Assembly: GCA_018062515.1 (NCBI GenBank)
Contig: JAGOSC010000003.1
Coordinates: 14,495 to 78,494, forward strand
DNA: 64,000 nucleotides
Direction: 5' to 3'
From: Candidatus Omnitrophota bacterium
GTDB lineage: Bacteria; Omnitrophota; Gorgyraeia; Zapsychrales; Zapsychraceae
The notes under the pieces are model-generated. The model ran no database searches, was not told the origin of the DNA, and saw nothing but the letters and a program-made list of their open reading frames with translations. Position 1 is the stretch's first letter. Each line of letters begins with the position of its first letter. The translations under genes were made by a program, and so were the position numbers. This document shows positions 12,368 through 57,900 of this stretch, piece by piece.

Positions 12368-12808
12368 TTAAAAATCGGCATATCCCATTCTTCGACATAT
12401 CCCTCCACAAGGGGTACAGAATATGCGTCCGTCATCGAGCAGAACAATTTCATACTCTAAAGTGCCATTGACCATTTTCTGCATTTGGGCGAGAGCCACC
12501 GAACTTGAGCTTCCACAAGAAGCCTGGGCAGGAATAAGAGAAGAGCTAAAATTTTTTAGCGACGGTATTGTAATATCTAATTGAGAACCATCGCTAGCAA
12601 AAACGTCGTTTTCCATCTGATAATCTTTCTGAGCTATCCAGATGGCTCTAAGGACTTGTTCGGCTTCCTGATTTTCCGTACGCCTAAGGGCTAGGCTGTA
12701 ATTAGGAATAATGAGTGAAATCAGAACACTCAATATGACGATAACAGCCATAATTTCATAAAGGCTAAAACCGGCGGAATTTCTAAAATTAAATGAAGAA
12801 TTTATCAT
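12368..12808 (-). CDS. Type IV pilin / pseudopilin-like protein (prepilin N-terminus)
   Basis: GFSLYEIMAVIVILSVL is a class-III signal (G|FxxxE) plus hydrophobic helix. The start is placed at MINSS (12806-12808), with AGGAAAA 8 nt upstream. Confidence 0.65.
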   Translation of the reverse strand: MINSSFNFRNSAGFSLYEIMAVIVILSVLISLIIPNYSLALRRTENQEAEQVLRAIWIAQKDYQMENDVFASDGSQLDITIPSLKNFSSSLIPAQASCGSSSSVALAQMQKMVNGTLEYEIVLLDDGRIFCTPCGGICRRMGYADF

Positions 12809-12926
12809 ATTTTTCCTTTGTGAAACAAGTATAACACGGCCAAATACGCAAAAATAATTAAGATTAAAAATTGTTGGTTTAGTTTGAATCAACGCTGAAA
12901 TTAAGGAAAGGATTATCTGGAAATTG

Positions 12927-33900: not shown

Positions 33901-36900
33901 ATAAATAATCTAAAGTCGTTCTATCACGATTGGTTAAATAATCCCACAATTCGTGTGTCGATTGTTGTCCGTCGACGAGAATGTCAAACACATGTTTGTC
34001 ATAGGTATAATCAGATCCCAATTCTTGTAAATATTTCTGCAAGAAATATGATTCAGAAACGAAAATAGCATTCTTATAACCTTTCTTTAGTTCATTTAAT
34101 AATTCCGCAAAAACTTCCGTAGAAACCAATTTTTTGCCGCCATTCGTATGCAAAAATCCGTTAAGTTTTTCTTTTAACAATAATTCGGCCATATCGATTC
34201 GGAATCCGCCGCCATTAGTTAAGCCAAGAATATGTTTCAAGACCTTAATCATGTGTTCTCTTAATTCCGGATTGGTCCAATCTAACTCAACGGTATCTAT
34301 CCACGGCGCGCTGTTTGGCCCTTCTTGTCCATGGAGAAACGCTCTTGGACCATGGATCGTATCAGCGATGAAATATCGATTGTTATATTTCATGGCATCT
34401 TTACGATTCTTCATATAATCCCCGAGTCTAAGTGCCGTCAACCCTAACGCTTTTAATTTTTCCAAGCTGATAGAAACGAACCACTCTGGATTGGAGTAGA
34501 TCCATGATGAATCGGCAGCCATATGATTTGGAACAAAGTCGACGATGACTTTCAAGCCAGCGGCATTGGCACGTTTCACTAATTTACGGAATGATTGTTC
34601 CGTTCCTAATTCTTCATTGATCGTGTAATCCTTAATGCTATAAGCTGAACCGATTCGTTTTTCATCCCACATTTTATTGAACTTGACCGTAAAGTCGCCG
34701 GTTTGCCAAATACCCATCATCCAAACGATGTTAAAGCCTTCTTTGCGTAAATTCTTCAACATCTTCGTCGAGACTTGATCGAAACGAAGGCCTTTTTCAC
34801 GGGCATTCCATAAATACATATTGGCGCCTTGGGTTTTGATTTCTTCATCAACATTGATTTTAGATTTCAAGATCGTTGCCAACGCTTCGTCATTCAGATT
34901 GACTGAATGGTCACCCTTCTTAATCGCTTCAACCTTGGCAAAAATTTTGCGATTATGTTCAGCGTGGATTTCAGCGGCGGCCATGATGGCTTCTTGTTTG
35001 GCCAATTCAACTAATTCTGAATTATCCATTTCCGGTGATTCCTTACGTACTCTTTCATAGGCCTTCCAGAATGTTTCTGCGAAAACCTCGTCAGTTTTGC
35101 GGGCTAATGCAAGAAGTTTTTTCATTTGACCGATTGTCGGCAGGACACGTTTATTTTGAATAGGATCGTAAATTCCAGATTTAAGATGGTCGTAAACGAA
35201 TAGATACTCTGATTTACGATCAAAGTTGGTGGAAATTAGACTGAATTTGCTAATTCTGTTTGACTCTTCAATATATGGACCAAATTCAGGCGTGGTTGCG
35301 TAGATTTTAATAATTTCTTCTTCTGTATAATTCTTATTCGGGTTCTTTTCTTTAAGAATATTTCTAATGAATTGCATCCATCTATGATCGAAAATCATCG
35401 CCGGCGGAGCGTTGGATGAACCATTATTTCTATTCTTATTTTCTTTAACCTGTTTACGATTTTCCGTCGCTGAGTGAAGTGCGGTGTACATCTTTTTACC
35501 CATCCAAACAAACGGGCCGGCAAAACCGACAAAAATTAAGTACCATTTATTCTTTCTTAATTGTTCATTCTTGATGAAGAAGTCTGGTTTGTTAACGGCT
35601 GACGTATAGAAAACACTGAAATATTGTGTTGAAATACCGTCGATGGCGACGGCAAATGAAGCTAAGACTGGATGCTGAACGATGAAGCTGCGTACGATTG
35701 AATGTATACGTGTCATCCAATAGGCTTCAAATTGTTTAGCACCGACTTTTCCAGCTTCTTCTTTCAATCTTTCGATGTTTCCACGGACAAATCTAACCAT
35801 ATTGGTATAACCAAATGTTCGTAATCGAACCATGGTCATGATACCAGCAATTCTTAAGGCGGTTGTCACCGCTTCTTCTATACCTGTTGATTGACCGCCA
35901 AATAAACTTGGAGCTAGATGACTTACCATCCATACTATGGCCGCAATTCCCGTCGTGGCGACGACTGCAAATTTAACATCCTTGATAAACTCCTCTTTAT
36001 CAAATGCTTTGGATAATTTAATTGTTCGGGCTTTATCCATCATTCCCATAAGATCCACTGCAACCATAAATGCGCTGACTGACAGAATTAAATATGTTAA
36101 ATCTAAATCTTTCGGCGCGATGACGGTGAAGTAAACCCAGCTGAACGCTCCCATGATCAAACCTAATGGGAAGGCCGCCACGATTTGTTTCTTGATAATG
36201 TCCTGACCGCCGATCCATTGACCAGAAAAGTCCGTGGCTGCCATGAACATACCGAAGATGATAATGTTAGCGACCGGTAAAGCGACGACGAGCGTCAATA
36301 ATCCGAAGAGATAACCGTAGGTTAACAAGGCTAAAGCTGAAATAGCAGAAACACTGACCAGGGCTTTGAATAATACATTCTTGGTCCGTTTGTTTTTCTG
36401 AACAGAATTATTCTTTTGATCGTCGACTCCATTGCTCGCGGCATTGTCCGTCAATAGTTTGGATTGTTCCGCTTTAGCCAACGCGTTATTTTTGTTTATT
36501 TGTTCTATTTCTTGAGCCGTAAACAATGGTTCAATGAACGGCTGGAATCGAGCAGGAACTGCCTTTGAACCATTCTTTAGAGAGCCAAACAAACTTCCCA
36601 AATATGTTTCAACATTAAAGACATCCATGGTTTGTTTTAATTTAATTCCTGATTGGCGAGAAAGAAGTTCCGCGCGGTCCTTTAATTGTTTCAGACTATC
36701 GTCAGTAACGATAAACATGCGGTGACGTCGGCCGCTCAAGATATTTTTGTTCAACTGATCCGCGCCATATACCTTGAATCTCTTTTTATCTTTATCATCT
36801 TTCTTCTTGGTCATCATCATGAAAGCGATATAAAGCGAATGCTTCCACAAAATTTCTTTAACCATCTTGTCAAAACCTCTTTTCTCAGCGCGTTTCTGCA

Positions 36901-39900
36901 ATTTACTGCTGTTGACCGAATACCCGTTAGAGATTCCTTTGTTTATTTCATGTTCTATCTTTGTTTTGTCTAATTCACTAAAGTTAAAATTCTCAATAAT
37001 TTTCTCGATATACTTGTTCAGCACTCTCAGTTTTTCTAAGTTAATAACATTATCTTCTTTAACCAAACTTAAAATCTGCATAATAATAGCCAAATGTCCG
37101 CCTACTTCTGGAAAAGTATTATAATAATAGGCCTTTAATGACATCGGAAGATTATGGCGGTATTGAAAATACAACATAATCGGCACACGAATAAGCAGCG
37201 CCACAGCCAGCGAGACAATTAAATATGAAATAATTGGCGCTAATAAAGTTAGCAGAACACGTTCCCCTACTAAATTATTTACCGTAAGATACGTTCCAAT
37301 CGACATACCGAAAACCTTTAAAAAGGTAGTGAATACCTTCAACCCTGTGAAAATTTTAAAGATTTTCCAATACTGACCAATTTGCTTACGTGACAATTCT
37401 TTTTTCTTAAGAGCCAAAACAATAACAAGACTAAGAAGTTTCCTTATAGAATTAATCTTCTTTATTGTGACCCGTGTGGTGCCTTTTAATATTGAGAATG
37501 AGCCAACCAAAACCAGCGCTAAGACTGCGGTCAACAGCAAGCCAGGTATAAATTCAGAGGTGATGCCGTCACCTTCAGTTTTTTCCGATTCCCCAATCGT
37601 TTCAACTTTAGTAATTGTTGATGACTCGGCATCACCTCTTCCTTCAGATTTCTTGGAGACAGCGTCGTTTTCTATTGTTTCCGATTCCCCAATCGTCACT
37701 TTAGTTTTTGCAAAAGAACGATCGCTGTCTCCAATATGGCGCGTATCTGAAATATTTTTCTGAGAGTCTACAGAGGTGATGCCGATAACTTTAGTTTTTC
37801 CGATTCCCCAACCGTTAATAACTTTAGTTTTATCTAAATCGACATCACCTCTGTAAATGAATGTGAAGACAGCATCAAGCTTTTCAGTTTTTTCCGATTC
37901 CCCAATCGTATTAACTTTAGTTTCTGTAAACGAACGGCTGACACTGCCTTCAATAGATTGTGTTGCTTGAGAATTTACAGGGATGATGCCGCCAATGTTT
38001 CCGATTCCCCAATCGTTAACTTTAGTTTTGTCTAATGAACGGGCATCATCCCTAGAGTTTGTGGAGACAGTGTCAGCGTTTTCAGTTTTTTCCGATTCCC
38101 CAATCGTATTAACTTTAGTTTCTGTAAATGAACCGCCGACGCTGTCTCCAATATTTATTGTGACGAAAAGCACAAATGTAATTAAAGTGGCTGCTGTAAA
38201 GCGTGCAGCTTTCTTAAATATTGCGCGGACAACGCCCATAACTGTTGTATTTCCGATTCCCCAATCGTTAATAACTTTAGTTTTTAAAGAACGATGGGCG
38301 TTGTCTGCGATATGTTTTATGTTTGAAATGTTTGTTGGTAGATATTGAGTGGATGTTTCGATCGTGCGGATGGTGAAGGCGTAAAACTTGAATACAACAC
38401 CATTTCGATCAACTAAAACGTTCAACCGGGCTAACCAGCTTAACAATTGGATCAGAACACCTTTACCCGCAATTTCTTTTTCTTTCAAATCATTTGAATT
38501 TTCAGCGGCGTAAACAGGTGTCGCGGCAAATGGATTCAATTTGCTTAATAATGTAAAAATGGTCGGCATCACTGGCAACACTGGTGTAGGCGCAGCTGGT
38601 AATGTCGTCGGAACGTTTACAGGAATCGTCGAATCTAAATGAGCCGGAATGTTTGTTTTGATCTTCTTAATTTCTTGTGCTTTATCTAAAATCTTATTTT
38701 CTTTAGTTTTATTAATTTGTTTTCGAAGTTTTACAACAGCAGCGATTGAAACAGCGACAATGATGAACGCTTTGATCACAATCGGGCTGAGGAAGAATGT
38801 CGCGACGGCCAGCAATATGATTGGACCGCGGTCATGTATTCCCAGCTCATCTTTAAAATAAACATCCCTGATCTCAACTATTTCAACTTCATCAATTTTC
38901 TCTAATGCCTTTCTTAAACCATTTTCCGCGTCTTCTATTGAAGTAGTTATCGGCATTTCCAGTCTCAATTCCAACAAGACTTCGTCATTATTATCTTCTC
39001 GAGCAATAACTGTATTATCGATATTGATTTTCAACTCACTTATGGTCGCTGATATTTTATTCATCAGTCCTTTGGCATCCGTTACCGTAATATAAATATC
39101 CCGTTTAATTGTTTGATCAGGCCGTATGGGAATATTTCTATCTTCTCTCAAATCTTGTTTTAACCGATTTATGCGTTTATCGAGATCGAGATCAGTAATC
39201 TCATTAGATATGATAATTTCAATTATTTTCTTTCCTTGTCTTTTTGACTTTTTAGTAGAAACATTATATATAAAGATATCGCCAAAAATACCCGTCGCTA
39301 ACTTTTGCATACCAGGCCGGTCTAACAAATCTATCTTGATAATTATTTTATGTTTCCCGGATTTGTTAACAGTAACGTCAATCTCATCCCAGGACTTCAA
39401 TTTTTCTGTAACGACCGCTGGCTTCAATTCACCGAGTGCGACGGCCTGGAACACGCCATCAGCGGTAAATTTAATACCCTTAATTTTTAATTCAGATAAT
39501 AAGTCTTGAGCTGAATAGTTCAGACGGTCGGTTATCACTTGATTATTTAAATCGATGCCCTCTTGAATTAATGCTTGTCTTCCGGTTTCATTGAGAATTT
39601 TAATAATCGTTTCCCGGATTATATTTCCGTTACCGTTACTGTTAAACGCGGCCAGTCCAACGATAACTTCTTTAATTTCATTGAGCTTCAAAGATTCTTT
39701 GACCTGTTCCAAAACTTGATTAGTTACGCTTGTTCCAAGACCTAATTTTTGCAATAATCCCAATTGCGGTAAGCCAATATTTTTAAGTTCTTGCATACCA
39801 AGCGCGTAATAATTTGATTTTGGATGAGCAATCTCCATAACCCTAATCTTTGTACGCCATGATTTTGCCGAATTCAATATAGCTCTTTGCATGGCCGGAT

Positions 39901-42900
39901 TATTACCCAGCTTAATTTTTGTTGAATTTGATCCTTGTCGAACCATATCTCCAGGTTGAAGTTCTGAATTTTCCCGGGCTTGGGCTGGATCCTGTGAGGC
40001 ATCATATGAATCTGATTTATCAACCCAAGAATTTGTTCTTGGTCTGTACGTTTGCACACCGATATAATCTTCCGTCAACCCTTTTTCGAATTGAGCGGAA
40101 CTTTGTTTGAAATTTAGCATAACAAAATCAGCCCCAGTTGCGTCTCTCGGTAGTTCGACGATATCAACAAACTTTTCACCGTCGATTTTTACCCATGTCT
40201 GAACGTGCATAATTCCTAAAGTTTTAAGTTTCTGATAAACAATATTAACCGACTCGTCTGCATCTTCACTTAAGTAAACTGATTCCTCCGGAGAAACTTT
40301 TTGCCCGGTTTTTCGCTGAATTGTATACAACCAATGAGAAAGTTTTCCGGCTTCATTCTTGACGCCAAAGCGCTGAGCATCAAATCTTTCTTTTGACTGA
40401 AGCATTATTTCATAAACTAATCCGTCTTTATAATTTCTAACCAAAATATGGACGTTATCATCTTCTTTGCGATCAGGGTTTGGATTATCTTTTGTTGAAG
40501 GCAATAGCTGCCCAAAGTTTTCCTCGATCTTACCGACTATATTCCAAATAGCTGCAGCCGCAGCCCGTCCTGTTTTATTCTTAACGATAAGAGTAATACC
40601 CAATAAGTCATTAAGTTCTGATACCTTTTTATATTTTGAACTGTCTTTTCCTTTTCGCACTTCATTAACTTTTTCATAAGCGCTGTGAGCTGTCTTAACT
40701 CGTTGATAGCTCTCAATAGAATTATCAAATACATCGTTTAAAACGCCTGTCAGTTCATTAGTAATTTCCTTCAAATAATTCTTCAATGCTTCGTAGGTGA
40801 ATTTACTATTTTTATATTGTCTAGGTGTCTGCGCTGTAACAATTTCTTCAATTGTTTCATGATATTTAACCGGATCTTTCAGAATAAAGATGCGTTCATG
40901 TAATACTCTCACTAAATTGGTACGATAAAATAGAGAAGCTAAAGTTACATAAATATCTTCAACTTCCCGAATGAAAGATTTTTCGGAATCCGTTAATTCA
41001 TGTTTTTGTGTTCCTTGTTGTTTGATCATTTCTTCGAGAAAAACAATATTCTCAGCAAACACCAAACGAAGAATATCCGCTTCAGCCACATCGTTTTTAT
41101 CGTCAATGCCGCCAGTCATTTCTACTATCATATCGACATAATCTTGAATTAAACTGTCTGTTATTCTTTGATCAACATCTTTTCGTTTTCTAATAACTTT
41201 ATCGGGATGATATTGGAGATTAAGGATGCGTTTGAAATTATAGACCATCTTCAAAGCCCACTCGACTGAACCATTCTTGATGCGCTTGCTGTTGCGTAAA
41301 ATATATTTGTTTAAATCTTTGTCACGATGATCGGCTTCAAAGAACAAGGCCGCGATAACTCCCTTAAACTTAGCTTCTTGACGGATAACAGCATCAACCA
41401 ACTTAAAGGCATATTGCATTTGTTCTTCGTTATATTTCGTCGAGATAATATCATAAGCTTCTTTAATAGCATCGGTGTGTTGTTTGAGGGTTTCTTCATC
41501 AACAGGATGTCGACGATATTGATTACGTTTACTATAAGCTTTCATTAATTCATCCATCTTTTCATCAAAGTTGTTATTATTTCTATTATTATCACCGCCG
41601 TTTATTAACACCGCCAATCCAGCGAATATCAAACCAGCTCCAAGAATATTATCGATCACATAAGCGACCGCCGCTGCCACAATCACGACTAGAAAGTCCC
41701 AAATCTTAGAGGTGCTGATATGGTTTATGAGTCCTTTTAACTTATTGTTTTTTGAAGGGCCGATTTTCATCAAGAATTGTCGGCTAAATTCATTGTTTTG
41801 GCTTTCAACCAGACGGATAATCCATTCTTTTTCATCATCGTATTTAAGTTTATTAAATATTTTAATAAGCGTATCTGTGTTATTTGTTGGGTTGCTCGCT
41901 TCTCTTATAACATCAATTCCAAAATATCTATCTTTTCCAAAGAGACGAGAAATATCCGCCCGAACTTGCGCATCTGCTCTTAACCACAATAAAAGCATGG
42001 CGCTCATCATCGTTCGTTTATGAGGAACTTTATGAATTATGTTCTTGTAATGATCAGATATGGTTAAAACCCAATCAATACTGGAATGATCACTCAATTC
42101 AACTGCTTTGGCGTAAACCTCCCAAATGCTATTCATTAATTCGCTAGCTTGTTCAAAAATACTTCTAATCGCTTCTTCTTTAATTTCCTCTTGAGTCGGA
42201 TTTTTATTTTTTCTCAAAAGTCTATCTTTTGCATTTTTAAGGAGGTCTTTGTCAGACGCTAATTCAAAAGCGTCTTCTATAATTATTTCTACCGCGTCTC
42301 TGGCGTTTTTCAAAGTTTTGATTTCTTTCGGCAATCGATAAAAATTATCCTTGTCGGCGATGGCGTTCAATAAGATTCTCTTAAATTCAAATCGGATATG
42401 TTTATATTCATTAGGAAGGCTGTCAATAAATGATTTGCCCGTGCTTGGCATTTTGGCGATGAAAAATTGGTATAATGTTCCGTCTTTAACATCCTTAATA
42501 GCTTGGCCTTCCATTATTCGTCCGAACGTATATCGTCCGACGAGTTCTTCATTGCTTGAATTTTTATCACTCATCAAATTATGAGCGCGGTCAGCCAACT
42601 TAACCGTCATTGCTATATAACCCGCGCGGATAATTCGGTCATAATAGCGAATGGTTAAACGTTTTTGATTCCAGTCCGCTAACTTCTTCGCCAATTCAAC
42701 CAACACGGCCGGAGCGCCCAATTTTTTCAATACTGAATATATTTTCAACGGAATTAAGTTTTCGTTTTTATTTCTGGTCAATACCTTGACCAATTTGATG
42801 ACCTCATCAATATCAAGATTTCTCGCTGGGTCGTTTTCATCTAATTTCTCGACCAATTCCTCTAATTGTTGACGAAGTCTCTTTTCGACTAAGGCCATCA

Positions 42901-45900
42901 TTTTCTTGGTCACGTGAATTTTTCGTCCGTCATTCAACCGGCGAATTTTCGCTGGCATTAATTTATTTTTGTCATTCGTGTAATAATCAATACTGTTTTC
43001 AATAACATCATGGAGAATGTCTACGGCCACAGCGACAGGGTTTGATATCAGGAACCAGTTAACTGACATACTAGCAACACTGTGAAGATGTGAAGTATAA
43101 TCCGTTCCGACTACATCTTTTCTGACATCGCCTTCGTGATGGTCTTTAACAATTTCGTTTAAACCTTCAACATATTTTCTAGTTAAACCGGTATTGAGCT
43201 GTCCTAGGCCAATAAAATTATCTGGATCAAACACGTGTACTCCATAAATCTTCTTAAAGATTTCTGAAAAAATATCTTCAGCGGAGCCGGCCTTAAATTG
43301 TTTATAGAATTGTCTTTCTACGGCCGGTTGTTGTGATGCGTCTTTAATATTTTCAACAACACTTGATTTAATCATAGGCTCATTACGTTTTGATAAAATT
43401 TTCCAAATGGCAAAACCAGCCGCGCCAACAGCCAACGCGCTAACAGCCACCCAGCCCCAAACTGGCATTGAAACCAATATAACTGGAGTGAAAGCGATCA
43501 ACGCGTCGACGACGATAATACTTGATCCAGCTTCATAAACATTTTTAATCGTTTTATTAAATACCGCGACAATGCCCTTACGACCAATGTTTTCGATTCC
43601 CCAATCGTTAACTTTAGTTACAAAAGAACGAAGGGCATTGTCGGCGGTAATATTTGAGATGTTGGATTGAAGATACTTTGAAGATTTGATCCTGGCAAAT
43701 GTAAGAACAGCGACGATGAATATCATCTTTATGACAATCGGGCTGATTATAAATACAACACCGGCTGTTAAAATTATTGCTCCTAAATCATTGGATTTAG
43801 TACCGCGCTCTTCAATTCTATTGAACAATATATTTTCTAAGAATGTTTTAGCTTTACCCGTTACGCTGGCAACTAATCGTGCCTTAGTGACTTTAGTTGT
43901 ATTGACATTTTGTATAAATCGATTAGCTAATATGTTTTGTTCTTTTTTGCTTAAACGGTTAAATAAACGATTTACCGCAGCCCAATGAGCGGCTGGTATA
44001 GCATTTATTCCTTGTTTTCCGTCGTGAACTGGCTGTATGTCGCCTTTAACGGTATATAAAGCTAAGCCGAACATTTCGCTGATTAAGGTTTCACTTAATT
44101 GTTTTGACGTTAAATCAGCCTTCATTGTATGGCTGATGGCTTTAATGTTTCCGGTGTTGATGGACGTTTCAAAGATTTGTTGAACAGTAGCTTTCGTGCG
44201 GAATTGTTGTAATGGAGTAGTGATAAAGACAAACGTATGGGCGTTTAGTTTTCTTTCAGCGGATAATATTTTGCGGTAATTTTCGAAATTTTGTTTTGTA
44301 TTGGTTGATTCATTCTCGAGGATAACATTTTTACCTTCGGTTAAAGTGATATTTTTGAATTCAACTTCAGTAGCGATCATTTGATTCATCACTTGCAAGA
44401 TGATTTGCGCTTCGCTGATCTTCACTTTTCCTGCGCTTAAAGCTGAACTTAATTCAGCCAAATCAGCCGCTGAACTGATAATCTTTCCGGCGACTTCGAC
44501 CGTGTAACCAGCTTCAAGGGCTTTGATGATCAACGGCATGGTTAATCGTCCATATCCGCCGAGAATAACAATACGTTTGGCGTTTGCTGCTTCATAAACT
44601 CTCAAGGTGTGTCGAATCATATCGATATCATCATTTCCAGCGAAAACAACATCGTCGACGGATTCTTGACTTAATTGTTCCATGGTCATATCAGATTGGC
44701 TGAGGCCTTCAGCCAATTGTTCTTTAGCTTCAGCGGCCAATTTGGCTTGACGTTGGAAGTACAAGCGGGCAGCTAACCAAGCGGCCAGTGATAAGGCAAC
44801 GATACCGGCGATGACAGTCGCATAAGCGCTGAACAATACAACAGCGACTATCCCCGGAGCCAAATCATTCATTTTCTTGGTATTCTTGGTATCTTTAACA
44901 TTCTTATGATTGGATACAGTCAATTTATTATTAAACAATCGTTTGGCTTCATTGAATAAATAATACAAGGATCCTAATATCCAGGTGATGAAAAAGACGC
45001 CAGTAATGGTAACCGGTAAGAAATAAATCAAAGCTGTTGCGGATTCTGTGACGGCCAACCCAATACCGAACCCTAACATAAGTAATTCATAGAATATAAG
45101 CGCTAAACCTTTAAAATATAATCCTCCCTTATTCTTTCTCAAATCTTTCTTAATGGCTTTTGTTAATTCTTGTTTTTCAGAATATATCGTGTTCTTATCA
45201 GCTTTAGCTATTTTAAAGAGTTGTTTGGTGATTGCACCTGGAACCCAGATAACATCTAACCAAGATCGGATAATTCCCGTTTTGGTCCATTGTGTATATC
45301 CTTTGAATCCTTTATAACCAGTTGTTCCGGGGAATATGCCCGGCATAGTCAGAATCGGCGCGAAGGCCCATAAGAAAATAGCGGCAATATAGAAGAATGA
45401 CCAAAGAATTGGTAAGGCTTGCCACAAGAAAACACCTAATGAAGATATGAAAATAAAGATAAGTGAGAAGTTTATCTGGAATTGGAATGAATCGGTCGCC
45501 TTAAGTTTATTACCAGCATTATCCATGAATCTATAAATGCGTTCGATGAACTCAAATCTAGCTATGTCCCATCCCTTCTCTGACTGATTAAACTTAGCCT
45601 TTCCGTGCAAACCTTTGAAAATACCAAGCGAATAATTGATGATGTAAGTGATGTAAACCATCATCAAGGCTGGGAACAATCCAAATAAACTTGAAATACT
45701 GCCTTGAATACCTTTGCGATTGAAATTCACATAATGTTTCACTAATGTGATGGCAAGCACGACTGCCGTGGCCAACCCAGTGAAAGGCATAAACGCCATA
45801 CCCAAAAAGGCCGTTAATCCTAAGAAATGCGCGATAAGTGAGGCCAAAATGGTCGTCGGAATAATACCTAAATAATTTACTAATCCGCGCATAATACCTT

Positions 45901-48900
45901 TTTCCTGTTGTGATTGAGCTATACCGCTCATGGTCACCATTTGTGAGAACCATACGCCGACGAAAGCCAAAAATACCGCGAATGGGAAGCCGGCAAAACC
46001 GCTGACACCCAAATAAAGGACGGTGAATATATATGACGGAACCGCTAACATAATGAACGGTTTCTTGGTAAAGAAGCTGATCGTGAAGAAGAGCATCATT
46101 TTTTGATACCAATTAAATTCTTTACTCTTCATTAAGCGGGTTAATTGACGTCCAAGACCTAATTCCGCCCCGCCAGCCGCAAATTTTTGGAACGGAACAG
46201 AACCGCCCGCGACGCTGACCTCGCGACCTTTACCTACCTGTAAATATTCACGGTGAGCGATGTAGTAACCTTTTCTCTTCAACCAAACTTGAATCGCTAA
46301 CATAATGTCTTCGGATACATAATCCGGAGGAAGCGTTCCGAATTCTTTTAATAATTCAGTTCTGAAAAATGCGCCGTGACCATAGAAACCTAATGCCGCA
46401 GACATGGCATTTACACGCATGACAAATGTTGTCCATGTGCGGTCACCGAAACCATGAACCTTACCAATCCAGTTGAACTTATCGGTGATGATATATTCAG
46501 CGACGTTAACCGCCATCAATTGCGGATCATCGTTGAATTCGGCCAAAAGGTTCGGGAATTTCAAGGCGTCTTCGAAGCGAATATCGTTATTAGCATCCAA
46601 GAACAAGTTGATGTCGCCGGTTGAATAGTTCATCATATTGTTTTGATTCATCGGTTTATAGTTTGGATAAATATTCCACTTTGCCGGTGATCCAAATTCT
46701 TTAAACGTTCCTTCTCTTGGATTAAATTTGTACATACTGTGTTCTTCGTCCGTCAAGAAAGCGACTTGAAGCATTGGATATTTACGTAATAAGAATTTAA
46801 GGTCTTCAATCTTACGGCGCTCTTCTTCCTTGTCATGTTTTTCTAATTTTTTGAAACTTTGATATGCCCAAACGATCTGTAATTTTTCAGCGACTTTAAG
46901 ATCGACAGCGGCTTCACTATGAGCAATTTCCGGGAATAATTGTTTAACGATAAAGCGGTAGGCTTCCCAGGCAGTAATGAGGCCCATAATGGTTCGGTAA
47001 AACGGATGGAAACGCATATTGACGAAGTCTTCCACCATTTCCGTAATCTCTTGGACGATTTCGCTATTCATATTTGTTGGGAACATAAACTCTTCTGTAC
47101 CTTCCAAAGCGCGCCATTCTGAAATGGTTGATTCGTCAATATTTTTGCCATATGTAGTAACTAAACGGCTCACAAAATTCTGCCATTCATCCGGCATTTC
47201 CTTAATAATGTGCGTTAACTTGGTTTTACCGACACCGCCCTCTTCTTTATTCAGGTCGGAGAAGTGAACCATAACAACTTCATCATTACCAACGGCGTTG
47301 ATCGTCAATTTCGGTAATCTTGTCCATGCCGGCATGGTTGGCATTCTCATCTTGACGACGCTAGTCATATAGAATTGTAAACGCTCTCTGACTTCTTCAT
47401 TTTTAAAGGTTCTGCTGAAATCATTAATAGCTACGCGTTCTTTTTCTTCTTGATCAATTAAATTCTTTTCGTATAAGTGTTTAGCAATTTCACTGCCTGT
47501 TTTCTTAGCGCCAAAATTTTTATCTAATTTGCTTACAAACGCGTCGGCATTTCTTCTTAACCCGCGGGCTGACGTAATAAAGCCTAATCCATCCATCCAT
47601 CCCTTTATTGAACCAGTGATCCATTGTGTAAAGTTAATAAAGGTAAATGTATCAAGAAAGTAGAACATGATGAATGTTGACCAAATAGCAATCGCTAGTC
47701 CCCAACCGGCAACCATACTTAAAGTATGATCTCCAAAAATATTAGACGTTATAATCTTTAAACTACTAAAGACGAAATCATTCCAAACATACTTAAATCC
47801 AAACGTAACGGCCCAGAAGAATGTACTAAAGGACAACTCTTTAAGAGAGCGTCTAACATAATTCTTTCTCAAATAACTGCTACTTATTCCTTTATCTATT
47901 CTGCTTGCCGTATTTACTATATTTCGGATGTTTTGAATCAAATTCTTAACAACCAAAAAGGCTATAAAAGCAATGGCCGCCCATGTCACAAATACCGGAA
48001 TCACCGCATAAATCGGTCCTAAGATAATGATCAATGTCGCCGGAATGGACAAAACAAATGGCCAGTTATTTTTACTATATTGAACAGCACCTCTAAATCC
48101 GGCAAAGTAAGCTGATGCCGCAATGATTATGCTTACCAGCATGATCGCAACTGAGGTAATAAGCATATTATCCGCCAAACCGTAAAACGCGATAACTCCA
48201 TTTAGGATTAAACCAATTACAACGCCGATGATAATATAAGTTTTGCGTGAGGCATAATTTCCGGATTTATCTTTGTATGTCTTGAATTTCTGAATTTTCT
48301 CTGCAATATTTTTAAAACTTGTACTATCTTTGTGTTTATACAACAATGTACCTAAACGGCCTAATCGTTTGAGTCCTTCCTCAAGTGGTAGTTGATTTCC
48401 TTCATTATCTCTTAGTTGCTTACTCAATAAATCTTTAACAAATTCTCGATTATTCAATTGATCAATCAAATCTTCCCAGGTAATTCTAGATTCTTTTTCC
48501 ATATCACCGACCGCTCCGCGATCATAGAATCTAGTTAAATTGAAGTACCATAGATCAATTTCCTTACCGAAGCGTTCTCCAACTCCTGCAGCCCATTTTT
48601 CTTTATCGTGGATATTACTGTCGATCAACTCTCGCAACATAATGGTATATCTTAATCGCGGCAGAATGGCGCGGATATGTGAACCGCGGGTAAACATAAG
48701 CACAAATAATACATACATTTCAAAATTGAATTTAATATTTTCGGGCAACTTTTGTCCGATTTGTATCATCCAATCATTGAATTCACTGAAATTATCGTCG
48801 AGGAATTTATCAGCGGATCGGTTGGTTCCATATAACATGTCAATGATTTTGTATAAGGCGATATCAACGGTTGGTTTATCAAAACCAAATTTTTCAGCGA

Positions 48901-51900
48901 CCGGCTTGATTTTATTTTCGATGGCGATATAAAAATCTTTCATGGCTTTATCAATCTTATTATTGGATTCAGAAATCTTATCCTTTGAACCGCTTTCCCC
49001 TTTCACCAGCTCTTCTTCTATTTTCGCAAGTTCTTCGGTCTTTATTGTCTCCAAAACTTCTTTCGCTTTCGCAAGATCTTCCTTAGACATGATCTTTTCT
49101 CGAGTAACCATTACTTCCAGCGTATTAATTTCTTCTCCTGACTCATCACGTCGATCACCGATAACATATTTGGTGAAGTCATTGCCATTTTTCTTTCTGC
49201 GTTTGGCTAATAAATTGCCTACTCCATAAGATAGTGGACGGCCAACATAACTCCACAAGAAGAGGATTAATGCGGCGATGCTGATCCATTGCATAATCTT
49301 GAACGAATCACCGTTGAAAATTCGGTCAATAAAGGACGTTTGATCAACATCAAATACTACATCAACGGTTTGATTTTCTTGATCAACCACAGTATGGAAA
49401 GGAATATCGAAACTTTGATTATTCTTAAGTTCCCATTGCTCGTCAAAGGTACGGTCCAATTCGGTTAATTCATCCAATCGTTTCGTGTCGGCAATTTTAC
49501 CGTCTTCATAAATATAACGTCTTACATAAACATTGCCTGAAGCTTGATCTTTTTCGGTGACGATGATCACTTCACGCACAATTTTCTTACCATCAACATC
49601 TTTGATAAAGGTATGAGAACTATTAAAGATAACGCTTAATTTCCAATTTCCATCTCCATTATGTGTCGTATAAGCTCTGACGGGTTTTTCATTCTCGTCG
49701 TAGATAACATATTCAACGCCGGATGTTATAATCGGCGCACCGGCATAACCTTGCGCCACCGGATAGAGAAGTTTATGAAATCCTTTAGCCAATAATTTTC
49801 CGCCCGGAGAACGAATTTGTGTGATTTTGAATTGTGAGTCAAGTACAAGAGATTCATAACCTTCAAGTGTCTTAATCACCTTGCCGGCTTCATCATAATA
49901 TTCAAACTGTACTTTATGCGTAGCATCGCGAGAGATTTTTGCGAACACAGCTCCATATTCACCTGGCCCACGGGTGACTGTAAAGTTTTCAAATTTTTGA
50001 CGGCTATACTCAACGTCTGGTGAACGGAAAACTTCAACTTCGGTTAATTGATGATCTTTTCCGACGACAATAGCGCCAGGCTGGACACCGCTGAACATGC
50101 GTGTTAATGTCGTCAACTCGCCGCCATTGTAGCGGACTTGTAAATCGTAAACTCCTTCAAAGTTCCATAAATTAATTCCTAAATCACCATTGGCGAACAA
50201 TACGGCGATTTTGCGTCCGCGAGCATCATTCGGGATCAGGAATTCATGTGTGGTCGTTGTTTCAACTTCTACCGGCTTTCCATCGACGAATGTTTTCGGT
50301 GTGACGAGAACTTCCGGTAATTTGGTATCCGGATAAATGCGCAACGATTCCATAATCTTCCAGAAGCCGCCTTGTTGCTGAACGCGTTCATATTCAGCCG
50401 GGAAACGTTTAGCTAAAGCTTCCATGTAGGTATTGATGACTTGCGGAGTAAAGAGACGTTTGGCAACCACTGTTCTGTCTTCATGAGGAATTTGCATACT
50501 GCGTCGGTAAATATCATAACGGGCTATTGAGAATGTTTCATTCGTCGCGTCATAGACTTTCAGTGAAAGCTCGCCGAATAATGTTCCGTCAGCTAATTTT
50601 TTAACTTCAAATTTTTCGAATTCTGAATGAGTATAAACAACATTTTCTACAGTACCATTCGGATGTCTGACATCCATACTCATAATACCACCCGTCGCTA
50701 AATAAGGATTTTCTTTGCCGTAGATATATTTGGATCTAATAGCTATGATCATATCCCGATTTTCTCTATCCGGAGTGGCGTCGTTTGCGTCAATTTCTTC
50801 TAACAATATGCCTTCAGCAGAGAAGATTTCGATAATATTTCGATAAATTCCGTCACTTAGTACAAGGGTTTTTGTTCTGGTTAATTCGCTAGTCTTATCA
50901 TTATGAGAATATTGGCCATACTTATATTTAAGAATCCAGCGTTTTGACGTTGTATCGTATTCGTAACCGCGTCCGCCGATTTCTTGACCTTGGGCGTTAT
51001 AGATCGGATAAAATCTTTGATCTTTTCCGTCTTGGGTATGGGTCGTTCGGTAAATAAGCTTTCCGTTGACTGTTTGAATGGTGGTTGATTTTTCTAAGTA
51101 TTCTTTCTTGTCATAATCGTACCATTTTGTTTCTTTAAGGATGACGGTTTCGTTGTACGGATTGAACATTCCGACGATGCTCTTAATTACTTTTCCGTTA
51201 ACCTTGATATCAACTTCTTTAGCTGATTGTTGAGCGCCTCGGCCATATCCGCCTTCGGATTGCGCGCCGGCTTTATTTATTTCATAACCTAAAGCGTTGA
51301 AGGTCATTTTCTTGGATTTTCCGGTTCGATAGTCGGTATAGACGATCGTGACTTTAGCGTCGGTTGGTTCAGCGTCGATGTTGTAATAAATGGTGCGTGT
51401 TCCGGCGATCTTGACTTGATGTGCGGCGAAATATTCAATCACTTCTTCGGTATAAGCTTCCATATCTTCGTAATTGTTGTAACTTCCGGTAAATTTAATT
51501 CCGTTCTTATAGATTTCCGTTGATATTTCGATACCGGTTTTTGGATCGTATGTCGGGATGGTGATAAATTTATCGTTAGCTGCGAAAAAGCGTTTTCCGT
51601 TGCGATAAATTTCAACGCCTTCATTTGTTTTCCATTCCGGATTGATTTTCTGAATAATCAAACTCTTATTGATCGGGAATGTTACCGTCGCTAATACTGT
51701 TTCTTCTTGGCCATCTCCGTCGACATCGATGTCAATTTGGAAGTTGGTGAAATTGCCGTTAACAATATTGAGGCGTTCAATTTCGGATAATGTTTTGATC
51801 TTATCCATGACCTTGTTGAGCATGACCAAATCGTATACCTTATATCCTTGTTCGTGAACATAAGCGTCGCCGAGTTCGATTTCGCCGGATGCTGTTTCTA

Positions 51901-54900
51901 CAATCTTGTTGAATGTAATTCCGCCGCGTCTATAGTTGAACTTATTGCCGTTGACATCGGTATAAATGCCGCCGTTCTTAAGCACATTGAAGCGTCGGGT
52001 ATTTTCCAAGTTTTGTTTTTCACGTTTAACATCTTCTTCCATTTGTTTAAGCCCGGCGATGATAACAATTCTTTCTAAACGTCCATCCTTATGCGCGATG
52101 AGGAATTCCATTTCATTCTTGGAACTGGTGAATTCAATATCCATGCGAAGGGCTTTTAGCTCACGTAAGCGGATCTTTTCATCTTTTGTTAAAGTACGTT
52201 CTTTTTTCGTTTGCTCTAATTGAACCTTTTCCTTCAAATCGTCTTTTAAATTCATATAGTATTCATAGTTTTCTTCGCCGGGCTTCACTTCAGTCTTTTG
52301 CACTTCTTCGAGAGTTAACTTTTTCGCCTTTGAGTTATATTTGGCAAATTCATTAGAAATAATCTTAACTTCTTTACCGATTTCATGAGCGATGCGATTT
52401 AAATCAGCCTTCATTAATATAGTTAAAGCTGTTTCATCCGTACCTTTCTCCTCGTCGGATAATTGATCATAAAGTTGCGCAAACATATTCGTTGGGTCAA
52501 TGATATTTCCGTTAACCTTGACTCTAAAATCAATACCTGCATTGCCGCTGTTTCCAATAATTTCACCAACTTTAATTCGATCGCCGATCATGACATCAGC
52601 ACCAGATAAATCTCCGTACACGATGCTGATTTTATTTCCTTCATAATCGATGGCGGTCTCAACTTCAATTTCAAACTTGCCGTTCTCTTTATCTTGTCCG
52701 ACATGGATGACTTCGCCGGTCATATTTGACGGGATTTCTGTATCGTCGGCGACAGCGATGGTGATTCGGTCATTATCTAATGTGAAACGTCCGTCTTTAT
52801 ACGGGCTATTATGGATAAGTTTAGATCGTAATAAAGCCATTCGAAGCGCTGCGAATTTCTTCACATCAGCTATGACAGTTGGTTTTGTAATTTGATTATT
52901 TTCAATTTTCGTTGTTAAGAAATTATCGCCGGCCACGACGCTGATGAAATATTGAGCGGTTGAGCCTAAGGCTTGATTGCCCACGGCAGTTTTAGATCCA
53001 ATACCGGTTTCAACGCCTTTAAGGGTGGCTTGCGGGAAGCTGCCGTCTTCATTCATCATTAATTCAAGTTGAGGTCGGTATAGTTTGACCCGTTCAATTT
53101 GCACATTAGCCTCGTCGAGTAAACCATATTGTCTGAAATATGGAATGAACATTTTGAATACGCCGATCGCTTGGGCGGTTTCTTTAGTAAATCCTATTCT
53201 TCGTTTACTTTCATCCGTGACGTCATTACGCTTGGTCATGGCGGTCTTCAAGTCAACTAAATCAAACAAGCTGACTTCTTTTCCTTTATACATAACGTTA
53301 ACGCCGAATGTCTCGACGATTTTGTTGAGAAGTTTGGCGAATTCCCGGGCGGCTTGCTCATTGGTCATGCCTTTTGTCTTGATAAAGGTGTCAGCATATT
53401 TTTGTGGGCCCATGGCTTCTATCAATTGCATTTGAACATCCGACGTGAATCCTTCAGCATCTTTTTGATTTTTAAATAATCCGGTTTCTTTATCTCTCAA
53501 GGTTTTAATAAAGCTTAAGCTTCTGCGGCTAGCTTCCCGGGAGTCGTCATCATCATTTTGCTCAGCATAATTATTGAAGAAGGCATATACAATCAAATTG
53601 GTTCTTAAGTCTTCAGCATTAGGAGTAATTCCTCTTTCTGAAAGCGGCAAGATATATTCCGGAAGGACTTTACCAAGTTTCAAATCAGTGTCTCCGAACC
53701 GTTTAACTGTCAGTGTTGTTTTTTGGTCTTGTACATCCAGCATCAAATCTTTAATATCTTCCAACATACGATGATAGCGGTAATCATGCGTGGACTTCTC
53801 ATAAGTCATAATTGCCAAACCAATCGCCGCGGTGGTAGGTACATGCGGATTTCCATGAGGTTCACCGGTATTGACGTCGATATCGCGCGCGAATCCGCTG
53901 AAGGAAACGCCACGGCCTTCGACTTGTTTCTTATAGCTAATATTATAATAATAATTAAGTGTGCGTTTGATGCTCTTGATATCGTTACTGATTAAATTCT
54001 TGATAATATCCTCCGCGTGATCCATACCAGTTCCGATTGAATATGAACCAGGCATTTCTTCGTCATAAGATTTAGGCGTTCCCGTCGGTGTGTTATACGC
54101 GCCAAAATCACTACCCATGTTCGTAGAAACTCCACTTTCTTTCAGCGCGAGCTTCATATTTTCCAAAGTTTCCATTTCTTGATGGATCTTCTTCAACTGA
54201 CTCTTAATTCCGTTGCGGGTAAATATAATCACTCTCTTATGTTCTGTGCCGTCGGCGTCAATGGTTGTTGCCAGTGTGACCGGAACTTGTATGGTACGGC
54301 CTTTGCCGTCGTCGATCTCTACGGATTGCACTGTTTTAAATAGGGCATTATATTGTTCTTGGGTATATGTAACGGCTTTATCATTGAATATGTTTGAGCG
54401 AATATCATAGGCTACAATGTTTTTATTATCTTCAATGCGATTCAAATGCTTGAGAAGATCCTTTTCCCAACCTAAAGTAAATGAATAGAACGGTACACCG
54501 ATACTAAATCTGAGCCCGGTCGGCGCTTCTTTAAATGGATAGCTCAATTTGTTATCACCGAATAGATCGGAAGCCCAATTAATCACGGATCGGCCATCTA
54601 ATCCAATGTTGACCACGTTCAAAATCTTATCGAGATAGGTAGCTTTCTGGGTCAATAAATCGTCGAATCTCTGATAATGAATTTGATGGCCAAGGAATAT
54701 GGATGATAAGGCCTCACCAATATTGACGCTGCCATTATATTTGATAATGCGCTGGCTTAAAATATTGACCAAGGTTGGATTTTTAGGTATGTCATACACT
54801 GGTATAATTTCTGTCCAATATTTTGGATCTATTTTTGGCGTCGATGGATCAACACCATTCAATCCAAACGATGATGGGTTGGTATTAGGATCTTGGAATT

Positions 54901-57900
54901 CTTTAGGTTGAGCGGATTTAATATTTTTCTCGGTGTTCAAACTTTCGGCTGCTCCGAGGAAAGAGGCGGCGTTCGACAATAGCCCCATGATAAAGCCGAT
55001 GTTTCTTTCGGCTGGAAGGCTCTTTAGATAACTAAACATACGCTCAGCATCTTCCGGTGTGAAATCACTTTCTAGTCTTTTCTCGGCTCTTCGTTTGTAT
55101 TCATCCTTGGCGCTCTGTGGAAGGGCGTTCCAACGTTTTGTGAATTCCCGGTCAAATTTATTTTGACTGAGCGTCTTTAAAGTCGGATCATTTTTCAATA
55201 ATTCTTCATTGAATAGGTATTTCTTATAGAACCGTATTTGCTCATTCTTCGTCGGGGCTTTAGGTGCTTTTTCCGGTTGAGTCATCATATCAAATACTAT
55301 TCCAGTCCCTGCCGTTAACAGCTTGAGCGGCGGGAAGAATCCTGTAAAGATATCGGCAAAGCCCGTGAAGAGATTAAAGACGCTTCTTTTCTCTAAAGTC
55401 TTTAACTGCTCTTTCTGTGCTTCTACTCTATTTTCTGCTTGCATCAAGCCCATAATGGCCTCGACTTCCTCGGCCTTATGCGTGTTCATGCCGTAAATAA
55501 TCCAGCTTTGATTGCCTTCTTTATCTTTTTCATCTTCGAATACTGAAATTCTTGGCAAAGGAGTTTGGCTGTATAACTTATTCACTGTTTTACGCCATTG
55601 CCCGTTGACATCCTTAACTTTCGTCACGATGACCGGATGTCCGGCTGATTTGTCTTCAAACTCTCTGGTATCGTCGTCGACCAAGAATTTCACGGCTTCA
55701 CTAATCATGCCGTCTTTGGTATTTACGATGACCGCTGAATATGGGTCTTTGCTTGGCGGCAACATGGCCTTTGAAAATTCAGGCGTTTCGCTGATTAATT
55801 CATCGCGTTCTTCAAGATCTTGGGTCTCTAATATATCTAATAATCGTATCAATACTTGTCGGTCACGAAGAACCGTTTCAGCCTTTTGAAGTTTAAGCTG
55901 CTGAGCTTTTTCACCGGAGCGTAGAATACCGCTGATCGGATTTCCTTGAAGGTCAAAACCTTGAACAACAGCAATCATGTCTTTTCCGAATTCTTCAGCT
56001 TCTCTGATTTGTTCATCGGTTAATTTAACGTAATATGGTGAAGTCGTAATATCTTCAAACGGATGTTTTCCTGCCTCAAGCTTGGCTTTATAAATCGTAA
56101 TGGATGCGTTTTCTTTGAATTTGTCAAATGATGGCTGATCATAGAGTGGCATGACGATCTCGTTGTAAGTATCCGGATTCATTGATATGACAAGATACAT
56201 TGGGCTGTCAGCACCGTTTTGTGTCATCAATTCATCAGCCGCTATTCCGTTGATCGACGCTGTGACGGTTCGTTCCAAAGTCTTTTGATCACCATCAATG
56301 TGAAGATTTTTCAATATTTCTTGGCGTTCTTCATCGCTTTGAGCACCGACGATATCTTTAGAAATTTTATTAAACTCTTTGTATAAATCGATCGTTTCAT
56401 CGTCTTGTTGTTTATCTTGATCGAGAGAAATTACCGGTTTGTATGGCTGGACCTTGATGTCTTTAGCTTCGTCGATCAATGTGCTCAACTCAGGCAATGT
56501 TCTGGCATTTTTCAATTTAATTTGAGCAGATTGTTTGGTGACATCAAAATCGTATCGTTCGGTTAATTTGATTCTTGTATCAATCAATGATTTTGTTTCG
56601 TAATGATTGATTGTTAATGATGTTGGGGCTTTCCCTAATTCTTTAAATTTGGTCGGCATTGGCGGAAGATAATTGTTTACTTCTTCTTTCTCGACGTTAG
56701 CTGGCACTGAAGTAATCGCCTTGAATTCACTCATGTCAGATGAAATTGTTTCATCGGTATCACCAAATTCAGTTTTTGTGGTGCTTTCTTCACTTGATGT
56801 ACCTTCTTCAACGTTCGTATCATTGCTAACAAAACTATGTCGTTGGCCGCCTCGGTGTTGTTTCTTCATAGCCATAAGCTTTTGATCCAATTCGCTCTTT
56901 TCGTAAATGCTCATGACATCAGACACATATTTACGTGTATCTTTGATTTCCGGAATTGAACCAGCAGCATTGTTAACCGCGTCTTCTCCGGCGTGATATG
57001 AGGCTAAAGCAAATTCTTTGCTATCAAATGACTTGAATTGTTTAGCGAATTGATATGAGCCAGCCAAAACGTTGATCGCTGGATCAAAAATGTCTGATTC
57101 TTTCCAATCCATCTTCAATTCTTGTGCAATTTTCATAAATTGTTCCGGAGTAATTTGCATTAATCCTCGGGCATTATTTTCAGTAGAGATTTTGTTTGGA
57201 TCAAAACCGCTTTCCTTAATAATGATCGCTTGAATCATTTGTCTGAAACTATCGCCATTTTTGAATTGCTTATTGAGGTTAAGGTCATCCATGTCAAAGA
57301 CCTTGTTAATGGAGCTTGAAATCTCAGCGTTTAAGCTCATTAAATCTGAAGACATAACCGTGTATTTAGCTAACATTTCAGTCACTACGTTTCTGTCGAA
57401 GTTTTCAGCTGGATTTGGTCCGACACCGTCTTTATGGAATTTTTCCATAGTAGACTTGGCCCAAGAAGGCATAACATTTGGCTGATCAGCATTAAACCAT
57501 TGACGTGAACCCATATCCAAGTGAAGTTGAGTCTTATAGAATCCAACCCCTTTAAATCCAGCTTGTAAGCCCATTTCCAAGAACAAGGCTTTTTCTTGAT
57601 CAGTTAAGGATTGTGTTTGGAAGTCAAATGCTCGGCCGGTATGATGTTCTTTTCCATCAACGCCTTCTGTATCTGTAGTTAATCTTGTTCCACTGCGATG
57701 TTCATCTTTGCCGTCTGGACCTTCATGATTAATTTGAACGAACTTGCCGCTCACCGTTGTAAACGCTCGGCCTAATTCATCGGCGGTCAAGGCAGCATGC
57801 GCATCAACGTCTGTTCCCGGCGCCGTCATGTCGGAAAGATCATAATGTTCAAGGTCATTATTTGAAGCCGTCCATTTACCTTCAACTGAATGCTGAAGCA

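Follow-up and report, generated by a model that had tools for sequence, protein, structure and literature searches.

A GT48-type synthase module within a giant protein of Candidatus Omnitrophota

Enzymes of glycosyltransferase family 48 (GT48) build the fungal cell wall, make plant callose and are the target of the echinocandin antifungals. Could a bacterium carry one? The question is raised by a 64,000-nucleotide stretch of contig JAGOSC010000003.1 (positions 14,495 to 78,494; Candidatus Omnitrophota bacterium, assembly GCA_018062515.1), to which we refer as the window. The Omnitrophota are bacteria of ultra-small size, and a life on other cells is suspected for them. An initial annotation, made from the letters of the window alone, had proposed that a giant protein encoded there contains a module resembling the fungal synthase Fks1. 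We consider it likely, with a probability of about 0.7, that residues ~5250-6400 of this protein constitute a self-contained, catalytically competent GT48-type processive synthase/translocase, which would thread a polymer made from a uridine diphosphate (UDP) sugar, probably UDP-glucose, across the cytoplasmic membrane.

Assignment to GT48 and active-site residues

Is the module a GT48 enzyme by sequence? The Pfam family Glucan_synthase (PF02364) matched it with an E-value of 6e-27 and a score of 94.6 bits, against a gathering cut-off of 37.2. It takes in residues 5529-6281 (window 45146-47404) and, on the side of the profile, positions 4-744 of 819. The GT2 signal in the module was confined to Glyco_trans_2_3, at 17.8 bits and below the cut-off of 27, and NCBIfam offered no model for the module. 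FKS1_dom1 (Fks1 residues 146-442), the second Pfam family that the initial annotation had suggested looking for, found no match anywhere in the giant open reading frame (ORF).

Searched against the PDB with phmmer, the module gave significant matches to Fks1 and Fks2/GSC2 only (E 1e-10). The alignment takes in 464 residues, to FKS1 811-1317 and GSC2 830-1336, in agreement with the earlier estimate that about 450 residues align block for block with Fks1. A profile of eight bacterial-type modules reached Fks1/Fks2 at E 2e-85 and 291 bits, covering FKS1 561-1315 plus a second stretch at ~1374-1494; the same profile scored BcsA at E 0.004 and 18 bits. Because the profile aligns with these stretches of FKS1, the homology covers the helices that precede the glycosyltransferase (GT) domain, the domain itself and some of the helices that follow it. 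The name given to this span in the Fks1 structure paper is the 'central catalytic region' (PMC10499315). E-values of this order, that of the profile included, exclude a chance match.

Does the predicted fold agree? An AlphaFold2 model of the GT domain (pLDDT 74.5, pTM 0.78) was compared with the PDB by Foldseek. Ranks 1-13 were all Fks1/Fks2 chains (E 2e-18, TM 0.62), and they were followed by BcsA (E 2e-9), hyaluronan synthases and chitin synthases. A low-confidence model of 1,200 residues (pLDDT 51) again retrieved Fks1 first and adds little. Sequence comparison and the modelled fold together confirm that the module belongs to the GT48 family, with Fks1/Fks2 as its closest fold. Its identity to the eukaryotic enzymes is ~23% in the GT domain, and ~18-23% to Fks1.

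The layout of the module is also that of Fks1: helices, a GT-A domain and further helices come in the same order (Table 1), and the motifs K..NQN, DAN, ED and Q.GKGR are common to both. The motif blocks that had first drawn attention to the locus all lie in one continuous minus-strand frame (FYRTIMGLITAWEAYRFIV, LLRKYPMLQVAFLTDEE, LDANNDIRFEDALKFPNLLAEF, FYGHGAF, VSEDIMLAI and REYLQVGKGRE). The module had been placed at 44900-48500, which proved correct to ~100-260 bases, the stretch from one helix block through the other being 44795-48235. The flanking multi-helix blocks, likewise anticipated, were recovered as hydropathy blocks on both sides of the inserted GT-A domain, and part of each block is homologous to Fks1 helices. 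In the N-terminal block, profile positions 46 to ~215 align with FKS1 561 to ~715, the helices preceding the GT domain, and the FFLD(T)F motif falls in this stretch. In the C-terminal block, profile positions 787-919 align with GSC2 1393-1513, and the Pfam match reaches residue 6281. In Fks1 itself the GT domain sits between transmembrane helices TM6 and TM7, and helices from both sides form the channel (PMC12715860). By homology the module would possess a channel too, and its C-terminal helix block is presumed to form this path for the glycan. The charge distribution of the loops did not settle the topology of the module, and the pLDDT of the 1,200-residue model, which includes the helices, is too low for the channel to be judged from it.

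If the module is an enzyme, are its catalytic residues intact? In Fks1, residues E851, D1080, K1082, D1102, N1104, E1155, K1172, E1173, H1195, N1220, E1221, D1222, K1246, R1248 and K1261 line the active site or the product path, and mutation at most of these 15 positions disrupts function (PMC10499315). The initial annotation had asked whether the catalytic residues of the Fks1 structure are conserved, and 11 of the 15 are identical in the window: E5570 (Fks1 E851), K5778 (K1082), D5798 (D1102), N5800 (N1104), E5831 (E1155), H5871 (H1195), E5893 (E1221), D5894 (D1222), K5920 (K1246), R5922 (R1248) and K5935 (K1261). At the remaining four positions the window has N for D1080, G for K1172, D for E1173 and S for N1220. 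These same positions vary among eukaryotes, the plant enzymes having E, Q, E and S there; plant callose synthases thus share the S at the N1220 position with the window and, like the bacterial group, have no D at that of D1080.

Conservation was counted in an alignment of 85 full GT domains, from which 72 bacterial-type sequences were compared. The residues corresponding to K1082, D1102 and D1222 are invariant in all 72, that of E1221 is present in 71, and the other conserved positions hold in 60-65 of the 72. Where BcsA has a metal-binding DxD, the window has DAN, a motif whose role in Fks1 is described as the counterpart of DxD (PMC10499315). The ED motif would be the counterpart of TED in BcsA and presumably supplies the catalytic base. 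Since catalytic residues are invariant or nearly so across the 72 sequences, catalysis appears to be under purifying selection, and the pattern of conservation indicates an enzyme selected for its activity.

Relatives in other genomes and the eukaryotic enzymes

How far does the module extend beyond this genome? The initial annotation was right that a bacterial copy is fused into a megaprotein, but this copy does not stand alone: it is one of a broad and diverged Omnitrophota family that occurs in many giant proteins. With the module as query, HMMER was run exhaustively against 1.84 billion cluster representatives and returned 362 matches at E<=1e-3, of which 210 reached E<=1e-10 and 64 reached E<=1e-30. 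The best of these sit within very long proteins; those named at NCBI are from Omnitrophota and are called hypothetical or are named after another domain. MBI4846161.1 (P0002, 6,932 residues) is 40% identical where the two match, a figure that rises to 48% within the GT core, and P0009, P0025, P0027 and P0087 are further NCBI-named Omnitrophota relatives. Fern callose synthases reach only ~E 1e-18 and 23% identity in the same search. A word-indexed protein search was nearly blind to the family, finding one match with the module and two with a 15-sequence profile.

We also scanned reference genomes, one per GTDB species, with an alignment of five sequences (the set of 15 was too diverse) and two peptide patterns. 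At least 12 loci were found. Seven are labelled Omnitrophota, the best of them at 56% and 54% identity, and two are labelled 'uncultured bacterium' only. In 11 of 12 loci the frame of the module is open at one or both ends of the fetched stretch, over as many as 7,243 codons. In L002, the closest relative among the reference genomes, the module adjoins GH2-like, DUF218, UPF0489 and HATPase domains; its neighbours are adenylate kinase and PHP in both L007 and P0006, and methyltransferases and HEAT repeats in P0040. As the adjoining domains differ from protein to protein, the module seems to act as a mobile building block of giant proteins.

Several single loci deserve mention. GT48-type modules occur in metagenome-assembled genomes labelled Spirochaetes, Planctomycetia (two) and Elusimicrobia (L006, L008, L010, L012), the labels being taken as deposited. 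A 7,809-residue giant gene (P0106, on L015) carries a deep-branching GT48-like module, and its flanks (L015 35634-37946 and 2802-5897) hold a UDP-sugar pyrophosphorylase gene (PF01704 UDPGP, two genes away) and a glycogen phosphorylase gene. On a 39.9-kb contig of 2.78x coverage (L001; ENA ERZ26696514), the giant gene is split into many adjacent same-strand ORFs and the GT48 module is broken in two (P0001, P0157); frameshift errors of a low-coverage assembly are probably responsible.

How does this family relate to the eukaryotic enzymes? We built neighbour-joining trees from 512 columns with Poisson distances and 100 bootstraps, Kimura distances being saturated and giving invalid values. Thirteen plant-like sequences grouped in 100% of replicates, and these plus eight stand-alone sequences grouped in 97%. 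One of the eight is from the glaucophyte Cyanophora and another lies on a contig with eukaryote-type split genes; the five that were scanned against Pfam had PF02364 only and no FKS1_dom1. The remaining 64 sequences, the window among them, form the complementary bacterial-type group, in which every replicate (100%) joins the window to P0002. Mean distances were 1.32 within the bacterial-type group, 1.44 between the groups and 0.62 within the plant-like sequences. Because the distance within the bacterial-type group is near that between the groups, and twice that among the plant-like sequences, the bacterial branch is old, fast-evolving or both. Judged from these sequences, it does not stem from any recent eukaryotic import. 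The split is unrooted, so the direction of any ancient transfer is not readable from it.

A midpoint-rooted tree placed the eukaryotes 'inside' the bacterial diversity; we did not rely on it, as an unrooted split gives no direction. A stand-alone protein of 2,534 residues (P0074), with GT48 and without FKS1_dom1, lies on a 40.9-kb contig (L014; JGI 3300058927) whose gene content is otherwise eukaryotic in appearance, with Kelch fragments interrupted as by introns, Cullin, a DYW deaminase and ankyrin repeats. This suggests that P0074 is the short-form GT48 of a protist lineage.

The Omnitrophota radiation holds sequence diversity at least equal to that of the eukaryotic enzymes sampled. We offer, as a tentative and rather doubtful proposal, that GT48 is no eukaryotic invention, that this sister radiation may have been the source of the eukaryotic synthases of beta-1,3-glucan and callose, and that an Fks1-type beta-glucan might serve in a coat or attachment apparatus on host cells. 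Rooting the family could reveal the origin of the eukaryotic beta-1,3-glucan synthases.

Proposed function and its alternatives

What would such a module do? We infer its activity, donor sugar, linkage, export direction and biological role by homology. A cytoplasmic GT-A domain at the membrane surface would bind a UDP-sugar, most likely UDP-glucose, via E5570, K5778, D5798 and N5800. The sugar would be added to the growing chain via the DAN and ED motifs (E5893, D5894), with the acceptor/product held by H5871, K5920, R5922 and K5935 (the K-G-R motif and H5871). Pushed through the channel of the flanking helices, the chain would emerge on the outer side of the cytoplasmic membrane. A beta-linked glucan, possibly beta-1,3, would be the most likely product, and it might form part of the cell coat or serve in contact with host or prey. 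Our best guesses are UDP-glucose and a beta-1,3 linkage, since beta-1,3-glucan is what the characterised GT48 enzymes all make (established knowledge; PMC3797821). Glucan-handling enzymes (GH13, GH77 and GlgB-like) lie on the same polypeptide as the module. The SLT and M23-like domains of the giant protein, which are of peptidoglycan-cleaving types, fit published proposals that giant proteins work at the surface of the cell against its host or prey, and a role of the glycan in coat or attachment is plausible.

Several differences from the characterised enzymes weigh against this proposal. The N-terminal ~560 residues of Fks1, its accessory domain, are absent from the module, the homology beginning at ~FKS1 561, and the C-terminal domain of Fks1 is absent as well. 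Because the Rho1-dependent accessory parts are missing, regulation must differ from that of the fungal enzyme; to our knowledge a Rho-type GTPase is not expected in bacteria, and there would be no Rho1 partner. Two extracellular disulfides are essential in Fks1, C658-C669 and C1328-C1345 (PMC12715860), and both are impossible in the module, which has no cysteine. The likeness to Fks1 is therefore confined to the central catalytic region and does not extend to the accessory domain at the N-terminus, to the C-terminal domain or to the disulfides. The bacterial members, moreover, are known from their sequences alone, and at an identity of only ~23% donor and linkage are not confidently transferable. 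Unlike Fks1, the module sits inside a polypeptide of at least 15,010 residues. The plant callose synthases (CalS/GSL, GT48), as members of the same Pfam family, have the module's invariant residues in common with it, but they are stand-alone proteins of ~1,900 residues, 23% identical to the module and on the other side of the well-supported split.

Perhaps, then, the module has the same fold and is active but makes something other than beta-1,3-glucan, through another linkage or another UDP-sugar, as happens across the GT2 synthases? The low identity to characterised GT48 enzymes (~23%) leaves room for this, as does the 97-100% bootstrap support that splits the bacterial group from all eukaryotic sequences. 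Residues on the acceptor side vary, with N or S found at the N1220 position, E, Q or R at that of Q1243 and A or G at that of K1172, and the fold is common to synthases of many products, among them cellulose, chitin, hyaluronan and mixed-linkage glucan. However, beta-1,3-glucan is the product of every characterised GT48 enzyme (PMC3797821), most of the residues that are proposed to contact the donor and acceptor glucose of Fks1 recur unchanged in the module, and the glucan-handling enzymes share its polypeptide. We regard another product as improbable, yet as the alternative most deserving of attention.

Is the module instead a catalytically dead relic that serves as a multi-helix anchor or scaffold? 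This would accord with the published description of giant Omnitrophota proteins as fast-evolving and of low conservation (PMC10066038), and with the absence from the module of the regulatory parts and disulfides found in Fks1. A relic, however, would not retain its catalytic residues, and in the 72 bacterial-type sequences these are invariant or nearly so while the rest of the module has drifted to ~25-35% identity. We reject this reading as very unlikely.

Eukaryotic DNA, whether through contamination, a chimeric assembly or a very recent fungal or algal transfer, would accord with the treatment of GT48 as a eukaryotic family; the papers on PF02364 in the literature that we searched all concern eukaryotes. 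The module, however, lies in frame in a 45-kb ORF with bacterial domains and is surrounded by bacterial housekeeping genes. The 14 other ORFs of the window include RdgB, RNase PH, QueE, QueC, MurI, an amidase, a secretin, MutS and MutL. Nine of them are identical to entries in a protein collection. Eight of the nine are named at NCBI as proteins of a Candidatus Omnitrophica/Omnitrophota bacterium, its genome being a metagenome assembly, and the ninth clusters with the QueE entry of the same assembly; the accessions of the eight and of that QueE entry lie between MBP9853415 and MBP9853430. GC content is even across the window, at 0.36-0.42. As the neighbours match Omnitrophota proteins exactly and GC is even, contamination and chimerism are not credible. 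The nearest relatives of the module are Omnitrophota giant proteins at 40-56% identity, against 23% for plants, and the 97-100% bootstrap separation of the eukaryotic and bacterial groups speaks against a very recent transfer, so that we give a eukaryotic source next to no weight.

Equally negligible is a GT2 enzyme of the cellulose synthase type that merely resembles GT48, the outcome that the initial annotation had set against its own assignment: GT48 leads GT2 in Pfam (94.6 versus 17.8 bits, the former far above and the latter below its own cut-off), in the profile search of the PDB (291 bits for Fks1 versus 18 for BcsA) and in Foldseek (E 2e-18 versus 2e-9, with 13 Fks chains placed before BcsA), and a strong structural match to BcsA is expected for any GT48 member because Fks1 itself has a cellulose-synthase-like fold (PMC10499315).

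We conclude that the proposed GT48-type synthase/translocase remains the best account of the module. Its sequence similarity to BcsA and the other processive GT2 synthases (hyaluronan, chitin) is marginal, and no PilZ or cyclic di-GMP domain was detected in it. Known bacterial beta-glucan synthases that export across the inner membrane belong to other glycosyltransferase families, and the kind of product is likely alike.

Has a bacterial GT48 been described before? No description was found in the literature that we searched, where the family appears in eukaryotic contexts only. As far as we have seen, a GT48 catalytic core without the eukaryotic regulatory parts, set within bacterial giant proteins, is new. 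The raw observation was discoverable, since a PF02364 match is already precomputed on several relatives in public collections. A minimal, cysteine-free enzyme without Rho1 dependence would be useful for mechanistic and structural work, and the module would assign a concrete, testable function to one part of the giant Omnitrophota proteins, which are opaque in other respects. If it makes beta-1,3-glucan, it would represent a second, independent bacterial route to this polymer; if a beta-glucan is exported, the polymer becomes a candidate for the Omnitrophota coat or for host contact.

The giant protein and its surroundings

The features of the giant ORF are collected in Table 1. No in-frame stop occurs in the final 12 bases to the window edge (63988-64000). 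The 5' end is therefore cut by the window, and 15,010 residues is a minimum; the source contig measures 81,473 bp. A hydropathy scan of the protein flagged 56 hydrophobic windows, which overlap in part. Directly C-terminal of the module lies a DUF218 domain, and in L002, too, the module is followed by a weak DUF218 match. A 172-codon ORF at 45594-46112, on the same strand and in another frame, is taken to be a by-product of the long frame.

Table 1. Features of the giant ORF, with window coordinates and residues of the encoded protein
Feature	Window coordinates	Strand	Residues	Basis and remarks
Giant ORF containing the module	18956..63988	-		At least 15,010 codons, single uninterrupted frame
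SLT lytic transglycosylase domain, upstream of module	56960..57244	-		Pfam PF01464, E 2e-20
Peptidase_M23-like domain, upstream of module	52493..52765	-		PF01551, 28.6 bits, just below cut-off of 28.7
Whole GT48-type synthase module, as searched	44645..48244	-	5249-6448	
N-terminal block, ~4-6 membrane helices	47636..48235	-	5252-5451	Hydropathy
Cytoplasmic GT-A glycosyltransferase domain	46064..47449	-	5514-5975	
KPMNQN motif	46640..46657	-	K5778	Fks1 K1082 (UDP-sugar binding); K in 72/72 bacterial-type and 12/12 eukaryote-type sequences
DAN motif	46589..46597	-	D5798, N5800	Fks1 D1102, N1104; D in 72/72, N in 60/72
ED motif	46307..46312	-	E5893, D5894	Fks1 E1221, D1222; E in 71/72, D in 72/72
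QVGKGRE motif	46220..46240	-	K5920, R5922	Fks1 K1246, R1248; K in 64/72, R in 61/72
C-terminal block, ~10-12 membrane helices	44795..46057	-	5978-6398	Hydropathy
DUF218 domain	44069..44572	-	6473-6640	PF02698, 29-30 bits, cut-off 27.6
Alpha-glucan (glycogen-type) enzyme run (Alpha-amylase, E 2e-39; CBM_48, E 8e-23; Alpha-amylase_C, E 1e-23)	29498..34759	-		Pfam
GH13 alpha-amylase	33716-34759	-		Pfam
GH77 4-alpha-glucanotransferase	31859-33238	-		Pfam, E 9e-162
GlgB-like branching enzyme	29498-31366	-		Pfam
Partial PALP domain, after alpha-glucan run	27848-28240	-		Pfam

Cysteine is almost completely avoided in the giant protein. Its 15,010 residues include a single one (C11854, codon 28427-28429). 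Read in its other two frames, this DNA has 281 and 565 TGT/TGC triplets, and cysteine content averages 1.18% over the 14 neighbouring genes. Several related giant proteins have none at all (0 in 7,243 residues in L002, 3,518 in L003, 3,522 in L010, 5,785 in P0140 and 4,807 in P0094); in others the depletion is only moderate.

Does the host protein belong to a known class? It fits the descriptions of both the Omnitrophota 'Archaeovorins' (West-Roberts 2023 preprint) and the 'multi-enzyme metabolic clusters' (2026 preprint). Like those proteins it exceeds 10,000 residues, has many membrane helices and lies near secretin- and pilin-like genes. It likewise mixes glycosyltransferase, glycoside hydrolase and peptidase domains (here SLT, M23-like, GT48, GH13, GH77 and GlgB-like) with a sugar-metabolism set. 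The preprints list GT5, GT1 and starch-synthase domains; GT48 or Glucan_synthase is not in their text, and the word 'cysteine' is absent from both. A divergent SecA DEAD-like domain is reported in 'most' giant proteins (West-Roberts preprint). None was found at E<=0.01 in the 15,010 residues inside the window, the N-terminus of the protein lying outside it.

Type II secretion-like genes have been reported near giant genes (West-Roberts 2023 preprint). In the window, a secretin gene (Secretin_N and Secretin; 5573-7048, minus strand) lies ~12 kb from the giant gene, and an ORF at 12368-12892 (minus strand), ~6 kb from it, was read as a possible type IV pilin or pseudopilin.

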